NCBI GenBank assembly: GCA_964568305.1
Contig: CAZMPS010000001.1
Location: 1-32,901, forward strand
Source: an uncultured Burkholderiaceae bacterium
GTDB taxonomy: Bacteria > Pseudomonadota > Gammaproteobacteria > Burkholderiales > Burkholderiaceae_D
Length of the DNA stretch: 32,901 nucleotides
Reading direction: 5' to 3'
In this document: piece by piece, positions 6,301 through 14,943 of the stretch
Layout: each line of letters opens with the position of its first letter
Numbering within the stretch: the first letter of the stretch is position 1
Notes under the pieces: generated by a model
What the model was told of the DNA's origin: nothing
The model's database searches: none
What the model saw: the letters and a program-made list of their open reading frames with translations, nothing else
Program-made: the position numbers and the translations under genes

Positions 6301-7218
6301 ATGTTAAAGGAAAAATGTATGTTTCGAATCTCTTCAGGAGTGGCTAAAGCTGCCTTTGTTAAAGGCTCCATAATGTTGGGCCGGGGCATGTCGGTTGGTT
6401 CCAGCCCAAGTCAAACTTTTAGTCGGCTGACTTCCCCTATTGCGCCAGGTACGAGCAATATTGGGCAAGTTGCTGGAAAAAATTCTTTGGCGTTTGGCGC
6501 AGTGCAACCAATTGCACAGTTATCTCTACAACGACCTATATCTGACCAAATATCAAACGATTCTGTCGATTTTGAGCATCCTCATATACAAATGGCAGTG
6601 CTCGAAAAACTGATTTCCGGACAAAAAATAAATCAGCGTGTCATTGATGGCATCCAAAATTGTAATGCACGCTTGTGGGTTTATGGGGATCAAGAAAAGA
6701 TCAAGGAGCAATTATTGGAATTGTTATTGCAACAACCGCTCACATCGAATGCGGCTATGACCTTGCGGTTTTTAAACGATCTTTTAGAGGACGACCAAAA
6801 CAGCCTCGCAACAGCACTGCTTCGTGAGAATTCTTCCTATATTCATGTTGAGTCAGCAGCATTGAAAACAGTGCTTGGCAGTCTCCATATATTTGATAAC
6901 CCTGAGGTCAAGGCAAGGCTGATAGAAAGTGCTACGGCGGAGCTTGATAAGGAGAGTCCTGATCCAGAAATGCTGGATGTCATCATGCAAAATGTCGATG
7001 ATTTGATCGATAATCCAAGAGCGCAACGAGCTGTTGCATGGACTATTTGGGAAGGGGGGGTCGGCGATGATCGCATACAGTTTGCTGCAGTCGGTAAACA
7101 ATTTACCGATCAGAAGGCCAGATTAATCATTGCTAAGGCACTTGAAATAGAATCTTTTCACATGAGTAATCTCGATGCCATAAGGGCGCGTCAATCTCTG
7201 CGCCAATTGCTTGGTTAG
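6301..7218 (+). CDS. Hypothetical protein with a Ser/Gly/Pro/Gln-rich N-terminus followed by a helical-repeat-like body
   Basis: Long ORF in an AT-rich region, with no signal peptide or recognisable catalytic motif. The alternative start MFRISSG at 6319 has AAGGA upstream and is probably the real start. Confidence 0.55.
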   Translation: MLKEKCMFRISSGVAKAAFVKGSIMLGRGMSVGSSPSQTFSRLTSPIAPGTSNIGQVAGKNSLAFGAVQPIAQLSLQRPISDQISNDSVDFEHPHIQMAVLEKLISGQKINQRVIDGIQNCNARLWVYGDQEKIKEQLLELLLQQPLTSNAAMTLRFLNDLLEDDQNSLATALLRENSSYIHVESAALKTVLGSLHIFDNPEVKARLIESATAELDKESPDPEMLDVIMQNVDDLIDNPRAQRAVAWTIWEGGVGDDRIQFAAVGKQFTDQKARLIIAKALEIESFHMSNLDAIRARQSLRQLLG

Positions 7219-7564: not shown

Positions 7565-8206
<642 letters not shown>

Positions 8207-8560
8207 TTAGGTACACAGCTAATGCCAATCCGACGAAAAATACAGCAAGAAACGCAGTGCCCCTACTTGCTTCATGTCCGATTAGCTTGTTTTTCATACT
8301 GTCTCAAAAAGTTGGAATTAACAGAGGTCTTACACCTTAGTTTGGCTGATTATTGTAGATGACTTTGCGCACTCATGGCCACGAGCGATCGACTGAAAAT
8401 AGATGATAGTGGACATTATGATAACCGCACGTTTATATACGAAACGTCGTGGTGCATTGACTATGCGAATTGGTGGTGATTTTGGGAAGAGAATTGATGG
8501 CTACTTTCGTGTGCTACTGAACTGAATGGTTATTTTGACGCGAATATTCAAGTTATACCA

Positions 8561-8779
8561 TCAGCGCTTGAAGCGACTAATAAGTTTTCGCTGTGGCGAG
8601 ACGCATGCATGGCTTGCGCAGTGGGAAATTGTTAGTGCTGCATTAATGGCTAGGCCATAAGAGTGATACCCAATTAATTGTCTTACCCACTCTCGCAACT
8701 GTTTAATTTTGTTGTTGGCTGTATCGACCATGCTGTTGCAATACATAAAAAAGTATCTTATATGGGTCATTTTATTCAT
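8561..8779 (-). pseudogene. Possible C-terminal relic of a transposase (ISL3-like NNKIK motif)
   Basis: The 72-aa ORF contains NSMVDTANNKIKQLR...GYHSYG. This resembles the conserved (T/S)NxxxExxNxKIKxxKR..GY C-terminal motif of ISL3-type transposases. The match is weak and the ORF is isolated. Confidence 0.25.
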
Positions 8780-8864
8780 ATTATAATTAACATTGTCCCA
8801 TTAAAAGATACTAAAACTACGCCTATCTTTAATGCCCCAAATACAATGACAATGGAGTACTCGC

Positions 8865-10145
8865 ATGGAGTGTCACTTTCAAATCTTTGTTGATGATCAT
8901 TGGATTGATTGTGCCACCCTCGCGGCACGAGGAAGCGGTAATGCTGGGAGCATTTTTGAATATGACCTGGATTATGCGTTCAGCGACATACTGGAACCTG
9001 TTTCACTGCGGTTCCCCGTCGATGCGATACATCATATAAGCCCTCATTGGCCAGCCTTTTTTTATGATTTGATTCCTCAAGGAAGTGGCCGCAAATTTTT
9101 GCTTGGACAACTTGGATTGCCAGATGGCCCAGGTGCGGATTTTTCTCTTGTTCGTGCGGGGGCGTTCAATCCAATTGGCCGTGTGCGGGTTGTGGAGGCG
9201 GTCGACTATTTCAACCAACATGTCCAGCGTCATGACGTTCGTGGCATGGATCAGGGTTTTACTTTGGCGGAAATGATGGAGCGTGGGGAAGATTTTCACG
9301 AACGCATGATGATACATAGCATGTTGGCAGCAGGAACAACTGGGGTTCAGGGCGCGGCTCCGAAGTATTTGCTCACCAAAGATGGACAAGGTTTATGGCA
9401 TGTAGACGGTGCTTTGCCTGATGACAAGGCCGCATCACACTTCATTGTGAAACGGCCACGTGGTACTTCAGAAGCAGACAAAAAAGTCTTACGGAATGAA
9501 GCCGCTTATATGGATGTGGCCGCATCCATGGGCATTCGTACACACGGCAAGCTTGCGCACCATGATGGATTTTTGTTTATTCCTAGATTTGATCGTCAGC
9601 TTGAAAACGGAAGAGTGATCCGCCTGCATCAGGAAAGCGCAGCATCCTTGGCTGGGTTGATCGGCTTCGATGCCAGGCCAAGCCAATTTGCGCTTTTATC
9701 CGCGCTCAGAACATTTGTCACAGACAAAACTGCCGAAACGATCGAATTTCTGAAACGTGACGTGTTGAATCTGGCGATGCGTAATACGGACAATCATGCG
9801 CGTAATACCGCCGTGCAGAAGATTGGGCAAATTGTTCGCTTAACCCCACTGTTTGATTTTGCGCCGATGTATTTGGATCCAGAAGGCATTTCACGCACAG
9901 CGCGTTGGTATCATCCCGTCACAAAAAAAGAGCTGACCGAGTGGCGTGATGTCATCGCAACACTTGAATTGGAAAAGGATGAAGCCCATCACATTACGTC
10001 CGCATTGCAAGCATTTGGGGAGCAACTACATGCGTTGACGCATCACATGCGGCAGGCGGGTGTCGATGAGGACATCGTCAATTTTGTAGGGCCGCATATC
10101 GAAGAGCAAATTCGACAGTTGCGTTCGATAGGAGAGATCAAATGA
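8865..10145 (+). CDS. HipA-family Ser/Thr kinase (putative toxin), module 1
   Basis: 426 aa. N-terminal HipA-coupling-like segment (FFYDLIPQGSGRKFLLGQLG). Gly-rich nucleotide loop GVQGAAPKYLL, plus IPRFDR. Catalytic loop RNTDNHARNTAV (DxHxRN variant of DxHxKN) and Mg-binding TPLFDFAPM. GGAG lies 7 nt upstream of the ATG. Confidence 0.85.
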   Translation: MECHFQIFVDDHWIDCATLAARGSGNAGSIFEYDLDYAFSDILEPVSLRFPVDAIHHISPHWPAFFYDLIPQGSGRKFLLGQLGLPDGPGADFSLVRAGAFNPIGRVRVVEAVDYFNQHVQRHDVRGMDQGFTLAEMMERGEDFHERMMIHSMLAAGTTGVQGAAPKYLLTKDGQGLWHVDGALPDDKAASHFIVKRPRGTSEADKKVLRNEAAYMDVAASMGIRTHGKLAHHDGFLFIPRFDRQLENGRVIRLHQESAASLAGLIGFDARPSQFALLSALRTFVTDKTAETIEFLKRDVLNLAMRNTDNHARNTAVQKIGQIVRLTPLFDFAPMYLDPEGISRTARWYHPVTKKELTEWRDVIATLELEKDEAHHITSALQAFGEQLHALTHHMRQAGVDEDIVNFVGPHIEEQIRQLRSIGEIK

Positions 10146-10555
10146 CATTGCGCAAAAAACCACTATCCCCATCGGATAAAGAAGCCGCTAAGCAGTTGCG
10201 AGCGCAGCTAAATGACGCCATTAATCGCGGTGAGTTAAGCATTCAAGATGCAGTGAAAAAAATGCGCAAGATATCTCGCCTGACGCAACCTGAGTTTGCC
10301 CATCACCGCGGCGTGAGTGCCAAAGTCATCAAGGAAATCGAGCGTGGTGTTGGGAATCCAACCGTGAATACGCTGAATCGAATCGGCGCGTTTTTTGGTT
10401 TGGAGGTGGCATTTGTGCGTTCCGAGCGATTGCGTGGTTTTGATGGTCAAATGAGTCAAGCGGGTTTGGCTGCATCGACTTCAGGTGCGCGTTCACCGAT
10501 AGAGGATTTGCGTCGGCTGGTAGATGAATTGGAAGCTGCGCAGAGAGGGCTGTAA
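10142..10555 (+). CDS. XRE-family helix-turn-helix protein (putative antitoxin/regulator) encoded downstream of kinase 1
   Basis: 137 aa. The central HTH is LTQPEFAHHRGVSAKVIKEIERGVGNPTVNTLNRIGAFFGLEV, with N- and C-terminal extensions of about 40 aa each. The start overlaps the kinase stop as ATGA (10142-10145). Confidence 0.8.
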   Translation: MTLRKKPLSPSDKEAAKQLRAQLNDAINRGELSIQDAVKKMRKISRLTQPEFAHHRGVSAKVIKEIERGVGNPTVNTLNRIGAFFGLEVAFVRSERLRGFDGQMSQAGLAASTSGARSPIEDLRRLVDELEAAQRGL

Positions 10556-10579
10556 ATTAATTTCTGTATATTTGTGTAT

Positions 10580-10601
10580 CACTGAGTAAATTTACTCAGT
10601 G
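10580..10601. repeat. Perfect 22-bp palindrome between convergent genes (hairpin terminator or dimeric-HTH operator)
   Basis: CACTGAGTAAATTTACTCAGTG equals its own reverse complement. It lies between the stop at 10555 (+) and the stop at 10627 (-). No U-tract follows directly on either strand. Confidence 0.7.
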
Positions 10602-10626
10602 GCCTACATTTATTTGTATTCATTAC

Positions 10627-11973
10627 TCACCCCAACCGCCCAATTTTGCTACTAGCCGCTTCAACATGCCGCTGCAACTCCGTGACGCAAGGTGCAAATC
10701 GCTGGCTGAATTCTGTTGAATCTATGATGCGAGTCAAAAACACACGTGCCAGTTCTTCTGCGCGGCGCCAGGTTTCGTTAGGCACGCTGGCGTGAATGTT
10801 GGCCTCTAACAGTGTGTCAGGCCGCTCGCCGCTACTACGGGGGGCGAAGGCCATTGGTGTCATGTCATACGCTGGGGCAATGTGATAAGGGCGTCCCTGT
10901 TCGGAGATGAAGGACAAGTTGCCGCTGTGCATGTCGGAGTTGCCGATCAGGGTGCCAAACGCCCATAGCAAGTTGGCGCTTTGCGCTGCTTCTGGCGTGA
11001 TTTGGCCGTCAGTCGCAAGACGGCGAGTGATGATAGGCCAGCTGGCTGTGCCTGAGCCGACGAATTCGGCATCTAGCGCTGCTAGTGAGATCAACGCACG
11101 CCGGCCTAGATCACCCACGCGGTCAAAACGTTCGACTTCCAGAAAACGTTGGTTGCCATGGTTGACTATGTGTGTGCTGGCAGCAGAGATGCCAGCATCG
11201 CGCAGTGTGCCTAGCGCCAGATGTTCAGCCAGCAGCAAATCACGCCAGCGTTCGCTCACGGGGCTTTCTTCCAGCGTGCTGAATTTCACAATCACATGCC
11301 GTGCGCCTGTTGGTGTCATGGCAAAAGCGGTGAATTTCGGCTGTTCGCCACCTGCGGATGATCCGGGTTTCTCGCCACTAGAGGTTGCTAGCGCCAGACT
11401 GGCATATTGCACGGCTTTTTGCTCTTCCGCGATGGGTTCTGCGGGCGTTGCTGCCAGAAAACGATCTCGTGCCATATCGCCAAGCAGCAGATTACCCACC
11501 ACATCATGACCATGCACCAGCAAAGCTCGCAGTGCGTGGCTATCGTTCCAATCCTTGAGCCCCGACGGCAGCCCAAGTTCCGCACCATAACGGGCAGCGT
11601 ATGCCCGCCCAAGATATCCCTGTGGCCGCATATCAAACAACCACCACGGCAGGCCTTGGCTATGCAAGGTCACGCCATCTTCTTGCTGCATGACAAACCC
11701 TTCCGGGCATACCGGTACCAATGTGCCTAAGCGTTTAATTCGACCTTCTGCATCAACCCGATAAATAGCAAAATCTGAGAACCCACGCGCGCTATCCTGC
11801 AACGCATAGTGAATAGATCGCGCTGCCCCAATCCGAATGATGTCATCCCCCAACTCAGCCAACGCACGCGCCATCGTCGGCTGGCTGACATTGATCTTCT
11901 CAGCCAGCTGCCGAGCGGACAATGGCCCACGAGCGAGGTACATGCGGATGGTGTCTATACGAGGGAGTGACAT
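10627..11973 (-). CDS. yjjJ: YjjJ/HipH-like protein: N-terminal HTH domain fused to a HipA-family kinase
   Basis: 448 aa. N-terminus LARGPLSARQLAEKINVSQPTMARALAELGDDIIRIG (HTH). Then WWLFDMRPQGYLGR, Gly-rich loop SSAGGEQPKFTAF, VERFDR, catalytic loop IGNSDMHSGNLSF and APAYDMTPM. Size and layout match E. coli YjjJ (443 aa). Confidence 0.8.
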   Translation of the reverse strand: MSLPRIDTIRMYLARGPLSARQLAEKINVSQPTMARALAELGDDIIRIGAARSIHYALQDSARGFSDFAIYRVDAEGRIKRLGTLVPVCPEGFVMQQEDGVTLHSQGLPWWLFDMRPQGYLGRAYAARYGAELGLPSGLKDWNDSHALRALLVHGHDVVGNLLLGDMARDRFLAATPAEPIAEEQKAVQYASLALATSSGEKPGSSAGGEQPKFTAFAMTPTGARHVIVKFSTLEESPVSERWRDLLLAEHLALGTLRDAGISAASTHIVNHGNQRFLEVERFDRVGDLGRRALISLAALDAEFVGSGTASWPIITRRLATDGQITPEAAQSANLLWAFGTLIGNSDMHSGNLSFISEQGRPYHIAPAYDMTPMAFAPRSSGERPDTLLEANIHASVPNETWRRAEELARVFLTRIIDSTEFSQRFAPCVTELQRHVEAASSKIGRLG

Positions 11974-11987
11974 GTTAGGTTAGTTTG

Positions 11988-12083
11988 TGAATAAATGTTT
12001 GAATATATTTATGAATAATTTTATGAATAGATAAATGAATTATATTATGAATATATTTGTGAATATATTTATGAATGGATATT
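11988..12083. repeat. Eight tandem, exactly phased 12-bp direct repeats (consensus TGAATAtATtTa)
   Basis: TGAAT starts at 11988, 12000, 12012, 12024, 12036, 12048, 12060 and 12072. Units 2 and 7 are identical (TGAATATATTTA) and unit 6 differs from them by 1 nt. Units 1-7 fill the gap between hipA (stop 12069-12071) and the yjjJ-like start (11973). Unit 8 encodes the last four hipA codons (NIHS). Confidence 0.95.
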
Positions 12084-13310
12084 GTAGGAAAAAAGACGAT
12101 CCTGCAACAGTTCGTGCAACTCCGGCGTCAACATCGGTGTGATTTCCACGAAAGCGTCTTTGATGTGTTGATACGTGTCTTGGAGTTCCTGCTCGGCTTG
12201 CTCCTTTGTCTTGATCCCAAAATATCGATGGTCAGCCAGAAGCGCGTTTCCACTCACGTCGGTTTGCCCTGCAGAAACCTGCATGGTGAGCTTCTTGGGA
12301 TGTTCATCAGGATTCGGTACCACGTCGAATGCTGGCGATAGACGCCACCGGCGTTCGTCATGCTGGTAAACAACTGCATGATTGCGTGGATGGTCATCAT
12401 CGTTACCGACGATGGCATTAAAAATCATGCGACGAAATAGCTCTAATTGATCCTCCGCCGGCGCACCAATCTGCTTTAACACCTCAGCCAAGCGTGGATA
12501 GCTGGCGCCCTCGCTATCGTTTTTTGACAAGAATGGATAGTGAATTTGTAGCAGCGAAGCGCAACTGATCGTCATCATGCGTTGATTGCCGCGCCGATCA
12601 AATCGCTTGACCCGAACAACGCTACGCCCAACAGACATCGGATGATGATGGGTTTCTGCAAAATTCATCCCAGCTTTGCGGCCCCACAATTGGGTTGCGT
12701 GCTCAAGAAGTGCAAGATCCACGGTGTCGGTATGCAAGCCGGGTTTAACAAGCCAAAAAGTGTCGCCATCTTGCACCGTCGCTTTGGGTCTGGCGCCACC
12801 CATGCTGGGCGTGGCAAATAATCGTTTGCGCAAGGCTGGATGCACAGCGGGTTTTGATTCAGTCAATGCAGTCAGCTCAGCAACCAAGTCATCTACCCGA
12901 TTTAATTTGGGACTCGCAAGGTGAGCGACGCTGGCTTTTTTGGAAGTGCCAATCGCCAATGCGCCCCAACGATCACCATTGCCAGCTTTGATGAGATAGT
13001 CCAACGCGGTCGATTTTTCCGACAACCCCTCTTTTTTCCTCAGCAGCATTTGCCCCCAGGCATCTGGACCCGCGTCGCGCAATACGTCGAATAATCCCCC
13101 ATATCGTCGTGCGATATGCACCTCGCCCTTGATGAGCGGAAGATTGACAGGATCAATCGCCCATTTCAGCCCAGCGTCGAAGTAGCTCGGCGCATACACG
13201 AACTCGCCGATGTCGCGCATATGTTGATAACGCCCCACCACAACCCACTCGCCATTGTCTGGCCTTTGTAGATAGACATACAGGTCCTGAACCCGATTAG
13301 AAATAGTCAT
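12069..13310 (-). CDS. hipA: HipA-family Ser/Thr kinase toxin, module 3 (canonical hipBA)
   Basis: MTISNRVQDLYVYL start at 13310; the track start at 13403 is an extension into hipB. Motifs are DAGPDAWGQMLL, Gly-rich loop SMGGARPKATV, VKRFDR, catalytic loop GNDDDHPRNHAV and SPAFDVVPN. Confidence 0.85.
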   Translation of the reverse strand: MTISNRVQDLYVYLQRPDNGEWVVVGRYQHMRDIGEFVYAPSYFDAGLKWAIDPVNLPLIKGEVHIARRYGGLFDVLRDAGPDAWGQMLLRKKEGLSEKSTALDYLIKAGNGDRWGALAIGTSKKASVAHLASPKLNRVDDLVAELTALTESKPAVHPALRKRLFATPSMGGARPKATVQDGDTFWLVKPGLHTDTVDLALLEHATQLWGRKAGMNFAETHHHPMSVGRSVVRVKRFDRRGNQRMMTISCASLLQIHYPFLSKNDSEGASYPRLAEVLKQIGAPAEDQLELFRRMIFNAIVGNDDDHPRNHAVVYQHDERRWRLSPAFDVVPNPDEHPKKLTMQVSAGQTDVSGNALLADHRYFGIKTKEQAEQELQDTYQHIKDAFVEITPMLTPELHELLQDRLFSYNIHS

Positions 13311-13626
13311 CGTCCATACTCCTATCCCTATTTCCACTTGCACGCGGCGCAGCCGATTGCATTTCCCATAAATGCCCCTCCAAACGCGGCGCGGCATGAT
13401 CAAGCAAACCTAGAACATTCAGCGCAGCCAGGTACAAAGACGCAGCAGCGGCAGTATCGCCATTCTCAAGACGCCGCAACGTTGGACGCGAAATACCCAA
13501 ACGACCACACAAATCTTCCGCCGTCATACGCAACGACACACGCTGCTTACGTATCGTTGCCCCCCACGTCTGCAGTCTTTCCACTACGCTGCTGGGGATA
13601 TCACCTGCGGTTCTTTTTTTCTTCAT
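13297..13626 (-). CDS. hipB: HipB-like XRE-family HTH antitoxin
   Basis: 109 aa with MTAEDLCGRLGISRPTLRRLENGD (HTH). It lies immediately upstream of hipA on the same strand and overlaps it by 14 nt (ATGACTATTTCTAA). Confidence 0.8.
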   Translation of the reverse strand: MKKKRTAGDIPSSVVERLQTWGATIRKQRVSLRMTAEDLCGRLGISRPTLRRLENGDTAAAASLYLAALNVLGLLDHAAPRLEGHLWEMQSAAPRASGNRDRSMDDDYF

Positions 13627-13736
13627 ATGTGTATTTTTATGGAATTTATTATTTACATTGTATGATGTTATGGAAAATTTATGTTACTGTTTTAATGAAT
13701 AACTATAAGTGATGGACGTATTTTTTAGGAGCGTTT

Positions 13737-13967
13737 ATGCGCAAAAAAATGACTATTACATTGGATGAAGCTGTTTATGACGGACTTTATAGAGTTGTTG
13801 GGAAACGCAAAATCAGTCAATTCATCGAAAATTTAGTCCGCTCTTATGTCGTCAAAAATGATTTATTAGAAAGTTATCAGGCGATGGCAAAAGATACCGA
13901 ACGCGAGCGCGAGGCATTGGAATGGAGTAATGACTTGATTGGGGATGTAACCGATGCTGCGCGGTGA
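13737..13967 (+). CDS. Ribbon-helix-helix (CopG/Arc-like) antitoxin paired with the MazF/PemK-family toxin
   Basis: 76 aa. MTITLDEAVYDGLYRVVGKRKISQFIENLV has the RHH strand-helix-helix pattern, followed by an acidic C-terminal half. AGGAG lies 6 nt upstream of ATG 13737. Confidence 0.7.
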   Translation: MRKKMTITLDEAVYDGLYRVVGKRKISQFIENLVRSYVVKNDLLESYQAMAKDTEREREALEWSNDLIGDVTDAAR

Positions 13968-14276
13968 GGTATGGTGGGTAGTTTTGATCCGGCAATGGGT
14001 GGGGAAATTCAAAAAACTCGCCCTGCCGTTATCATCAGCAACAACGCGGCAAACACTACCTTAAACAGAATTCAAGTTATTCCATTAACCAGTAATACTG
14101 GACGACTGTACGTCAGTGAGGCTGTTGTTAGCGTAAAAGGAAAATCCAGCAAAGCAATGGCTGATCAACTCACTACAGTGGCTAAAGAACGGCTCAAGGG
14201 TAAGCTGGGGGCAATTTCAGCGCAGGATATTGAGGCGGTAGAGCGGACCATTAGGATTCAGCTTGGGATGGAGTGA
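13954..14276 (+). pseudogene. mazF: MazF/PemK-family endoribonuclease toxin, frameshifted near codon 10. The longest intact ORF is 13971..14276.
   Basis: ATG 13954 overlaps the antitoxin stop and reads MLRGEVWWV, the canonical MazF first strand. The family body FDPAMGGEIQKTRPAVIISNN...IPLTSN continues in another frame (track ORF from 13971). The two frames differ by one nucleotide at the T-run 13982-13985. Confidence 0.75.
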
Positions 14277-14427: not shown

Positions 14428-14943
14428 TTAAAACGGAATATCATCATCCATATCCGAAAAGTTCGGTGCTGGTTTTGGTGCAGGCGCTGGGCGTGCAGGC
14501 GCGTTGTTTTGATTATTGTTGTTGCTGTAATTATTGTTCTGATTGTTATTCTGATACGGCGCAGCGCTGCCGTAGCCGTCGTCCATTGGTGCGCTGCCCA
14601 TTCCTTGGCGGCTGCCTAGCATTTGCATGGTGTCGGCGCGGATGTCGGTTGCGTATTTTTCTATGCCGTCTTTGTCGGTGTATTTACGGGTGCGTAGACT
14701 GCCTTCTATGTAGACTTGCGAGCCTTTTTTGAGGTATTGGCCGGCGATTTCGGCTAATTTGCCGAAGAAGGTGATGCGGTGCCATTCGGTTTGTTCTTTC
14801 TTTTCACCGGTGTTTTTGTCTTTCCAGTTGTCGGTGGTGGCGACGGTGATGCTTGCCATGGCATCGCCGCTGGGCATGTAGCGCATTTCTGGGTCGCGGC
14901 CTAGGTTGCCGACGATGATTACTTTATTGACTGATGCCATCAC
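14428..14943 (-). CDS. ssb: Single-stranded DNA-binding protein
   Basis: N-terminal OB fold [20 protein letters not shown], a disordered linker, and the canonical acidic tail DMDDDIPF. Confidence 0.95.

Follow-up and report, generated by a model that had tools for sequence, protein, structure and literature searches.

The window, that is, the whole stretch of 32,901 nucleotides analysed here, carries hipB, hipA and hipH in this order on its minus strand, together with an array of eight 12-bp direct repeats that runs from the last codons of hipA to shortly before the start codon of hipH (Table 1). These genes are part of an island (7565-14276, lying between pckG and ssb/uvrA) that contains four toxin-antitoxin-type modules, with three Hip-family kinases within 5 kb. 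A different, 15-bp tandem repeat (14504-14550) is located inside ssb and corresponds to the Asn/Gln-rich linker of SSB.

Table 1. Features of the hipBA-hipH locus and of related repeats. Positions refer to the window unless another locus is named; u1 to u8 are the repeat units, numbered in the direction of hipH transcription.
Feature	Position	Strand	Remarks
305-aa ORF	6301-7218		no Pfam match; adjoins the island
IstB (IS21) fragment	7565-8200
Second hipA and downstream HTH gene	8865-10555		reversed order
hipH, 448 aa	10627..11973	-	full-length HipH/YjjJ kinase
Winged-helix coding region of hipH	11779..11973	-	residues ~1-65; helix SQPTMARAL, wing RIGAARSIHYALQD
14-nt stretch CAAACTAACCTAAC	11974..11987	-	from the last unit to the hipH ATG (11973-11971); no Shine-Dalgarno sequence
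Eight 12-bp direct repeats	11988..12083	-	contiguous; all seven spacings exactly 12
Units u1-u4, 5' to 3'		-	u1 AATATCCATTCA, u2 TAAATATATTCA, u3 CAAATATATTCA, u4 TAATATAATTCA
Units u5-u8, 5' to 3'		-	u5 TTTATCTATTCA, u6 TAAAATTATTCA, u7 TAAATATATTCA, u8 AACATTTATTCA
-10-like box TACAAT	12086-12081	-	overlaps unit 1, within the last hipA codons (Y-N-I-H-S)
Possible -35 hexamer TTGCAG	12102..12107	-	15 nt upstream of TACAAT, inside the hipA CDS
hipA, 413 aa	12069..13310	-	HipA_C domain; upstream of hipH
hipB, 109 aa	13297..13626	-	Xre-type HTH antitoxin; overlaps the hipA start by 14 nt
Promoter-like site TTTCCA-17-AATAAT	13648..13676	-	upstream of hipB; region conserved in L002 and L204
mazE-like and mazF pair	13737-14276
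Distant-clade repeats, Vitreoscilla plasmid	L209 1342-1444
Distant-clade repeats, Allochromatium plasmid	L210 1393-1478
Distant-clade repeats, Polaromonas plasmid	L214 about 458-546

On the plus strand of the window, TGAAT occurs at 11988, 12000, 12012, 12024, 12036, 12048, 12060 and 12072. The initial annotation had described eight exactly phased 12-bp units, and its phase and its list of 12-mers are borne out by the window sequence and by shuffling: three phased TGAAT gave six overlapping hits in the window, all within the array, with 0.00 expected (100 shuffles), and two phased ATTCA gave seven hits, again all within the array, with 0.21 expected. On the minus strand, the coding strand of hipA and hipH, the array reads NNNNNNNATTCA and ATTCA is present in all eight units, whose 9-mer cores agree with the family core ATCTATTCA (see below) at 5 to 9 of 9 positions. 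Tandem Repeats Finder places the repeat at 11984-12076, with a period of 12, 7.8 copies and 71% matches, and gives an alternative period-24 reading with 75% matches. As RNA, the array showed no hairpin potential (MFE -4.5 kcal/mol, z = -0.88, no better than shuffled). Unit 1, the last unit when counted from hipH, was correctly said to encode the C-terminus of HipA: 12083-12072 reads AAT ATC CAT TCA on the minus strand, which encodes N-I-H-S, and the hipA stop codon TAA (12071-12069) falls within unit 2. The distance from the array to the hipH start codon had been given as 15 bp and is in fact 14 bases.

The protein encoded downstream of the array matches the NCBIfam equivalog NF007297 (YjjJ) over residues 7-447 of 448 with a score of 593.6 bits (cut-off, 401). 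Pfam HipA_C matches with E = 9e-25, and there are weak winged-helix hits at residues 11-53. Homologues with 70-90% identity carry the source name "HipA family toxin YjjJ", and E. coli K-12 HipH, which also falls under NF007297, is 39% identical over the full length. The model match, the names of the homologues and the relationship to the E. coli protein together identify the gene product as a HipH/YjjJ kinase in the nomenclature of Gerdes et al. (PMC8262856), who described HipH/YjjJ as a monocistronic operon.

Alignment of the N-terminal domains revealed a SQPT.SR helix that is nearly invariant across the family, followed by a wing with the pattern v-R-i-G-a-a-R-S-I-Q-Y-a-L-R-D. When a profile of this domain was compared with the PDB, the ArsR-family protein NmtR (2lkp, E = 5e-4) and the MarR-family protein AdcR were matched; the Pfam ArsR family HTH_5 matches the N-terminal domains of 25 of the 33 members and Pfam Arg_repressor gives faint hits in five of the 33 (best E = 0.002), all of these winged-helix matches being below the curated family cut-offs. 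On this profile evidence, the N-terminal domain of HipH is an ArsR/MarR-like winged helix. An AlphaFold2 model of the whole of HipH, calculated with 30 homologues, is confident for the kinase core and poor for residues 1-165; with a pLDDT of 33-69, the N-terminal domain is too poorly defined for a structural test of the binding mode. Our search for solved structures found none of HipH, only those of the distant HipA and HipT.

The relatives of hipH were represented by 80 genome loci encoding HipH homologues with 55-76% identity, to which we added two contigs with a 90% identical homologue (L001 and L002) and the E. coli K-12 locus (L083). Almost every locus, including 78 of the genome loci, the 90% homologue and E. 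coli K-12, has ATTCA in 12-bp phase on the hipH coding strand, at positions of about -34, -22 and -10 relative to the ATG. The family core is ATCTATTCA with an invariant ATTCA, and the unit consensus is wwwATCTATTCA; the 43 loci with an exact triple share the consensus ccTAtAaTATCtATTCA..tATCTATTCAtaaATcaATTCA..c..ATG, in which a -10-like hexamer lies over unit 1. Phased triples occur in the window only in the array. A search of both strands in 507 kb of hipH loci gave 44 exact triple-phased hits of ATTCA, every one of them directly upstream of hipH and on its strand. A motif-free k-mer count of the 60 nt upstream likewise found ATTCA to be the most enriched 5-mer (58-fold), and identical 5-mers in the same region are most often spaced by 12 (315 pairs), then by 24 (110 pairs), with a smaller maximum at 11.

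Exact ATTCA chains at 11-13 bp were counted in 81 loci. They comprise three units in 50 loci, two in 22 (most of which show a degenerate third unit) and one in seven; four units occur in a single Acidovorax locus, and eight in the window only. The family norm is three units with the last about 5 nt from the ATG; the window has eight, with 14 nt between the last of them and the ATG. In E. coli K-12, the hipH ATG follows 3 nt after the last of three perfect ATCTATTCA units spaced by 12 bp. On Enterobacter, E. coli and Proteus plasmids, in unrelated contexts, hipH is again accompanied by three ATTCA at 12 bp.

Several further observations concern E. coli. In K-12, a fourth ATCTATTCA is found right after the deoD terminator (L083 2169-2177), ~65 nt upstream of the triple; this copy might serve as a distal site, for instance in looping. 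hipH is missing from most of the E. coli genomes in the collection, for example from O104:H4 (L205, NZ_CP027394.1, 2930-3050) and ~3650 others. These genomes nevertheless retain the triple ATCTATTCA and the ATG, and also the distal ATCTATTCA after deoD, beside an HTH pseudogene on the opposite strand, and the sequence from the distal copy to the triple repeat differs from that of K-12. A second hipH type, 53% identical to the window protein, is carried by 31 E. coli plasmids (~66-100 kb, most predicted to be non-mobilizable), and the triple repeat is present in L207 (CP122667.1), the one plasmid with this type that we examined.

A metagenome scan for at least five phased ATTCA returned at least 120 stretches, and no HipH relative is encoded among the matches listed; these stretches are unrelated satellites, and the scan is thus uninformative on expanded hipH arrays. 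We found no description of the repeat element in the literature on yjjJ/hipH operators, repeats or autoregulation, and searching the literature for the motif string ATCTATTCA produced unrelated primer hits only. Judging from the sequence comparisons, this appears to be a previously undescribed, operator-like element of a known toxin family, of which the window holds an unusual expansion to eight units.

The surroundings of the array can be compared with those in its closest relatives. HipA homologues align up to ...ELLQDRL and then diverge. The last seven residues of the window protein, FSYNIHS, are unique; the DNA encoding them is that of the hipH promoter and unit 1, so that the reading frame of hipA just continues into the hipH promoter. 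In L204, which has the nearest hipBA (86% HipA identity), neither hipH nor the array is present. In L001 and L002, the region upstream of hipH contains hipB (87% identity) and hipA up to codon 28. Their array consists of three phased units, two of which are identical to the window units 2 and 3, followed by a truncated unit and a displaced one; the two contigs come from two samples and are identical. Taken together, the altered leader of this relative and the window array indicate a lineage with a rearranged and lengthened leader, of which the window holds the longest, perfectly phased form. The search for same-species relatives returned no exact record of the window SSB (with two alternative starts), CoaD or MazF. 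In the E. coli collection, all seven full-length entries among the matches listed match over exactly 151 bases, which means that they have kept the three units.

Three other features of this region may be mentioned here. In L002 (518-1747, minus strand), and likewise in L001, an opposite-strand ORF of ~404-409 aa without a Pfam family replaces hipA after codon 28. A single TATTCA unit is located upstream of the hipB promoter-like site (13696-13700, TGAAT on the plus strand) in the window and likewise in L002, both with hipH further downstream. L204, with hipBA but no hipH, lacks this unit; a single pentamer could be due to chance. No useful inverted repeats turned up in the regions preceding hipB and the second hipA operon.

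Unit 1 overlaps the conserved -10-like hexamer. The window sequence TACAATATCCATTCA at 12086-12072 corresponds to the family consensus TAtAaTATCtATTCA, which combines the -10 box with unit 1, and TACAAT is thus the putative promoter -10 of hipH. TTGCAG is a weak candidate for the -35 element. A simple promoter consensus scan, which required a spacer of 16-18 nt, did not call the TACAAT site with TTGCAG. It had been argued that any promoter of hipH must lie inside the array; this is not so, as the family-conserved TACAAT sits at the upstream edge, within the hipA coding sequence. The gene hipH has a -10-like box of the family type and follows hipBA on the same strand at a distance of 95 bp, and no intrinsic terminator (GC-rich hairpin followed by a T run) was called on the minus strand between 11800 and 13800. 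Read-through from the hipBA promoter is therefore also possible. The hipH leaders of the 81 loci are made up only of repeat units, and a Shine-Dalgarno 4-mer core at -18 to -4 was found in none of them.

The repeat sequence changes with the recognition helix of HipH. The clearest cases are three distant plasmid proteins, two of which are 37-40% identical to the window protein. Upstream of the Vitreoscilla plasmid HipH (helix SVATLHRLL), AAAATCTTyKCAA occurs three times, with spacings of 12 and 78; the Allochromatium plasmid HipH (helix DRATLLRWV) is accompanied by three copies of AAAATCGTTG, with spacings of 63 and 12 and the core ATCGTTG; and the Polaromonas plasmid HipH (helix SRATLMRAV) by ATTGTTTCA and ATCGTTTCA 12 bp apart, plus a copy beside the ATG. 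Each locus of this distant clade has one 12-bp-spaced pair and a third copy 63-78 bp away (ATCTTyKCA, ATCGTTG and ATCGTTTCA, respectively). E. coli HipH is equally distant overall (39%), yet it retains both the SQ.T.SR helix and ATCTATTCA. Within the main clade, Comamonadaceae proteins have the helix SQPTATRAL and an altered wing, and their units read TTTTwATTCA at 11 and 12 bp. Finally, a substitution of Ser by Ala before the invariant Arg is found only in the window protein and its 90% identical relative in L001, both of which favour ATATATTCA over ATCTATTCA. This co-variation, which comprises few phylogenetic events, is the pattern expected if a protein and its own site had evolved together, and it points to HipH's own HTH as the binder.

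From the sequence comparisons above, we think it probable that the array is a cis-regulatory element of hipH expanded from three to eight units, which are most likely bound by HipH and would bring about autorepression. Each 12-bp unit would be bound by one HipH winged-helix domain, head to tail. Unit 1 would lie over the -10 box, and the remaining units would extend over the transcription start and the leader as far as the ATG. With all of these occupied, RNA polymerase would be blocked, and a toxin without a separate DNA-binding antitoxin would be autorepressed. The five extra units of the window may strengthen repression or cooperativity, or block read-through from hipBA. The repeats with their phase, their conservation and place in the family, their restriction to hipH and their co-variation with the helix are observed; HipH binding, repression, the position of the transcript start and the effect of the extra units we infer. 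The initial annotation had proposed an operator for one of the local HTH proteins. With phased ATTCA before hipH in about 80 other genomes and plasmids, and with the helix co-variation, the comparative evidence strongly supports this proposal for the adjacent HTH-kinase. HipB and the 137-aa HTH protein are unlikely binders, since the element accompanies hipH in genomes that have neither.

Published work on the E. coli protein bears on this question in both directions. The HTH of E. coli HipH is required for toxicity and the protein localises to the nucleoid (PMC11452175), and Gerdes et al. noted that the HipH HTH "may function to bind DNA" (PMC8262856). ChIP-exo of myc-tagged YjjJ in E. coli K-12, on the other hand, detected zero binding sites (PMC8464067). 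Low expression, the tag or inactive conditions might account for this negative result, which still counts against HipH binding.

Autorepression need not be the whole story. HipH kinases might polymerise head to tail on the 12-bp iterons, in which case the eight units would give the array an added function beyond autorepression; we regard this extension as doubtful. Eight units would correspond to about one superhelical turn of bound protein, and the added function could be to block read-through from hipBA or to hold the toxin on the DNA as a reservoir.

An alternative to binding by HipH is that the repeats are bound by another host-encoded regulator, such as a c-di-GMP-responsive factor acting on the E. 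coli hipH promoter. Transcription of E. coli hipH is indeed controlled by c-di-GMP at its promoter through a regulator that has not been identified (PMC11452175), and the empty YjjJ ChIP-exo screen (PMC8464067) is in keeping with a different binder. However, the element accompanies hipH through Gamma- and Betaproteobacteria, on plasmids and in unrelated neighbourhoods, so such a factor would have to exist in all of these hosts, and the repeats change along with the recognition helix of HipH itself. We therefore consider a host regulator unlikely.

It is similarly improbable that the repeats act in the mRNA, as an unstructured AU-rich leader without a Shine-Dalgarno sequence that sets the translation of the toxin, or as the target of an RNA-binding factor. 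The units follow the conserved -10 box and are invariably found on the coding strand, none of the 81 loci has a Shine-Dalgarno core, and the window leader is unstructured, all of which would suit such a role. Yet most of unit 1, given its overlap with the -10 box, would not be transcribed, the distal ATCTATTCA of E. coli is situated ~65 nt upstream of the triple and beside the deoD terminator, and in the distant clades copies are 63-78 nt apart, some of them well upstream of the proximal copy. Moreover, we know of no RNA mechanism that requires a strict 12-nt phase in the absence of structure, and co-variation with a DNA-binding helix fits DNA recognition better.

The array might also be a slippage-prone minisatellite, in which the number of units tunes the expression of hipH or the C-terminus of HipA, as the initial annotation had suggested; this reading would be compatible with an operator function. 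The eight units of the window, set against the three phased units, the truncated unit and the displaced one of the 90% identical homologue, lend it weak support, as does the Acidovorax locus with four. But the units are diverged (71-75% matches) and so are no product of recent slippage, L001 and L002 are the same, and the seven listed E. coli entries have a constant length. In the count of units in relatives, which the initial annotation had proposed, the number differs from that in the closest homologue; it is exactly three in 50 of the 81 loci and three in the listed E. coli entries. We give little credence to slippage as the explanation of the array.

It is highly improbable that HipB (13297-13626) or the 137-aa HTH protein (10142-10555) uses the array as its operator. 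Besides proximity, this reading has in its favour that HipB reportedly neutralises the toxicity of YjjJ in E. coli (Maeda 2017, as cited in PMC7180214). Against it, Xre-type HipB dimers are described as binding palindromes in their own promoter (PMC8262856), and a separate conserved promoter region is present upstream of hipB. The repeats precede hipH in dozens of loci without a nearby hipBA or homologue of the 137-aa protein, and the hipBA closest to that of the window comes without hipH and without the array. Lastly, the earlier idea of intrinsically curved or otherwise structural AT-rich DNA with no specific binder finds no support and is most unlikely: the composition is AT-rich (the block 12001-12500 has 44% GC and the array far less), but a 12-bp period is out of phase with the helical repeat of ~10.5 bp, so that bends would not add up, and the invariant part is a specific pentamer, ATTCA, across loci of very different GC content.

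To our knowledge, HipH/YjjJ alone among the well-known Hip kinase toxins has no antitoxin gene as its partner. What keeps its expression and activity in check has been described as unknown (PMC8262856). An element that is found from E. coli to Betaproteobacteria, lies over the -10 box and co-varies with the protein leads to the hypothesis that hipH of K-12 is autorepressed via three 12-bp sites, and it may explain why the promoter region is important in c-di-GMP control (PMC11452175). Should the polymerisation reading be true, the repeats would be an unrecognised, family-wide operator restraining a toxin that has no antitoxin gene. As an autorepression operator, with or without polymerisation, the eight-unit array would be a natural dosage variant beside a second Hip module, useful for studying cooperativity as well as cross-talk of hipBA with hipH. 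The hipB-hipA-hipH arrangement is also of interest in view of the neutralisation of YjjJ by HipB reported by Maeda (2017, as cited in PMC7180214).

Several known classes of repeats were considered and rejected. As stated in the initial annotation, the array is neither a CRISPR array, the units being contiguous and without spacers, nor an intrinsic terminator, none having been called in this region of the minus strand and the RNA fold being no better than that of shuffled sequences. Replication-origin iterons were dismissed because the neighbours are hipA and hipH and the ORF list of the window contains no rep gene. The ARG box of ArgR is an 18-bp palindrome, TGAAT-N4-ATTCA, that usually occurs in tandem pairs, and it has the TGAAT/ATTCA pentamer in common with the array. 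The array, however, contains only direct TGAAT, with no inverted partner at the ARG spacing; its inverted pairs are weak and AT-rich, and the element is hipH-specific.

Repressors of the ArsR/SmtB and MarR families are the best sequence and profile matches of the HipH N-terminal domain. They are dimers that usually bind inverted repeats, and have metal or ligand sites; HipH differs from them in its kinase body and its direct repeats. Similar in the layout of the DNA are TubR, which binds the 12-bp repeats of tubC, and ParR, which binds parC: such small winged-helix or ribbon-helix-helix proteins polymerise along direct-repeat DNA. The likeness lies in short direct repeats with a period greater than the helical repeat, eight 12-bp units amounting to about one superhelical turn. 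In contrast to these systems, the window has no partition or replication gene, the array is situated between a -10 box and the start codon of a toxin kinase, and polymerisation of HipH is hypothetical.

The operators of hipBA likewise belong to a Hip-kinase locus in which several operator copies at the locus's own promoter are read by an HTH encoded at the same locus (PMC8262856). HipB is a separate, Cro/Xre-type dimer that binds palindromes, whereas HipH has a winged helix fused to its kinase and would read 12-bp direct repeats. A close counterpart of the window array is that of E. coli K-12 hipH (yjjJ, b4385), which shares with it the unit ATCTATTCA, the 12-bp phase, the strand and the place before the ATG, likewise without a Shine-Dalgarno sequence. 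It differs in having three perfect units 3 nt from the ATG and a distal copy, compared with eight diverged units at 14 nt in the window, and E. coli hipH stands alone after deoD, whereas hipH of the window follows hipBA.
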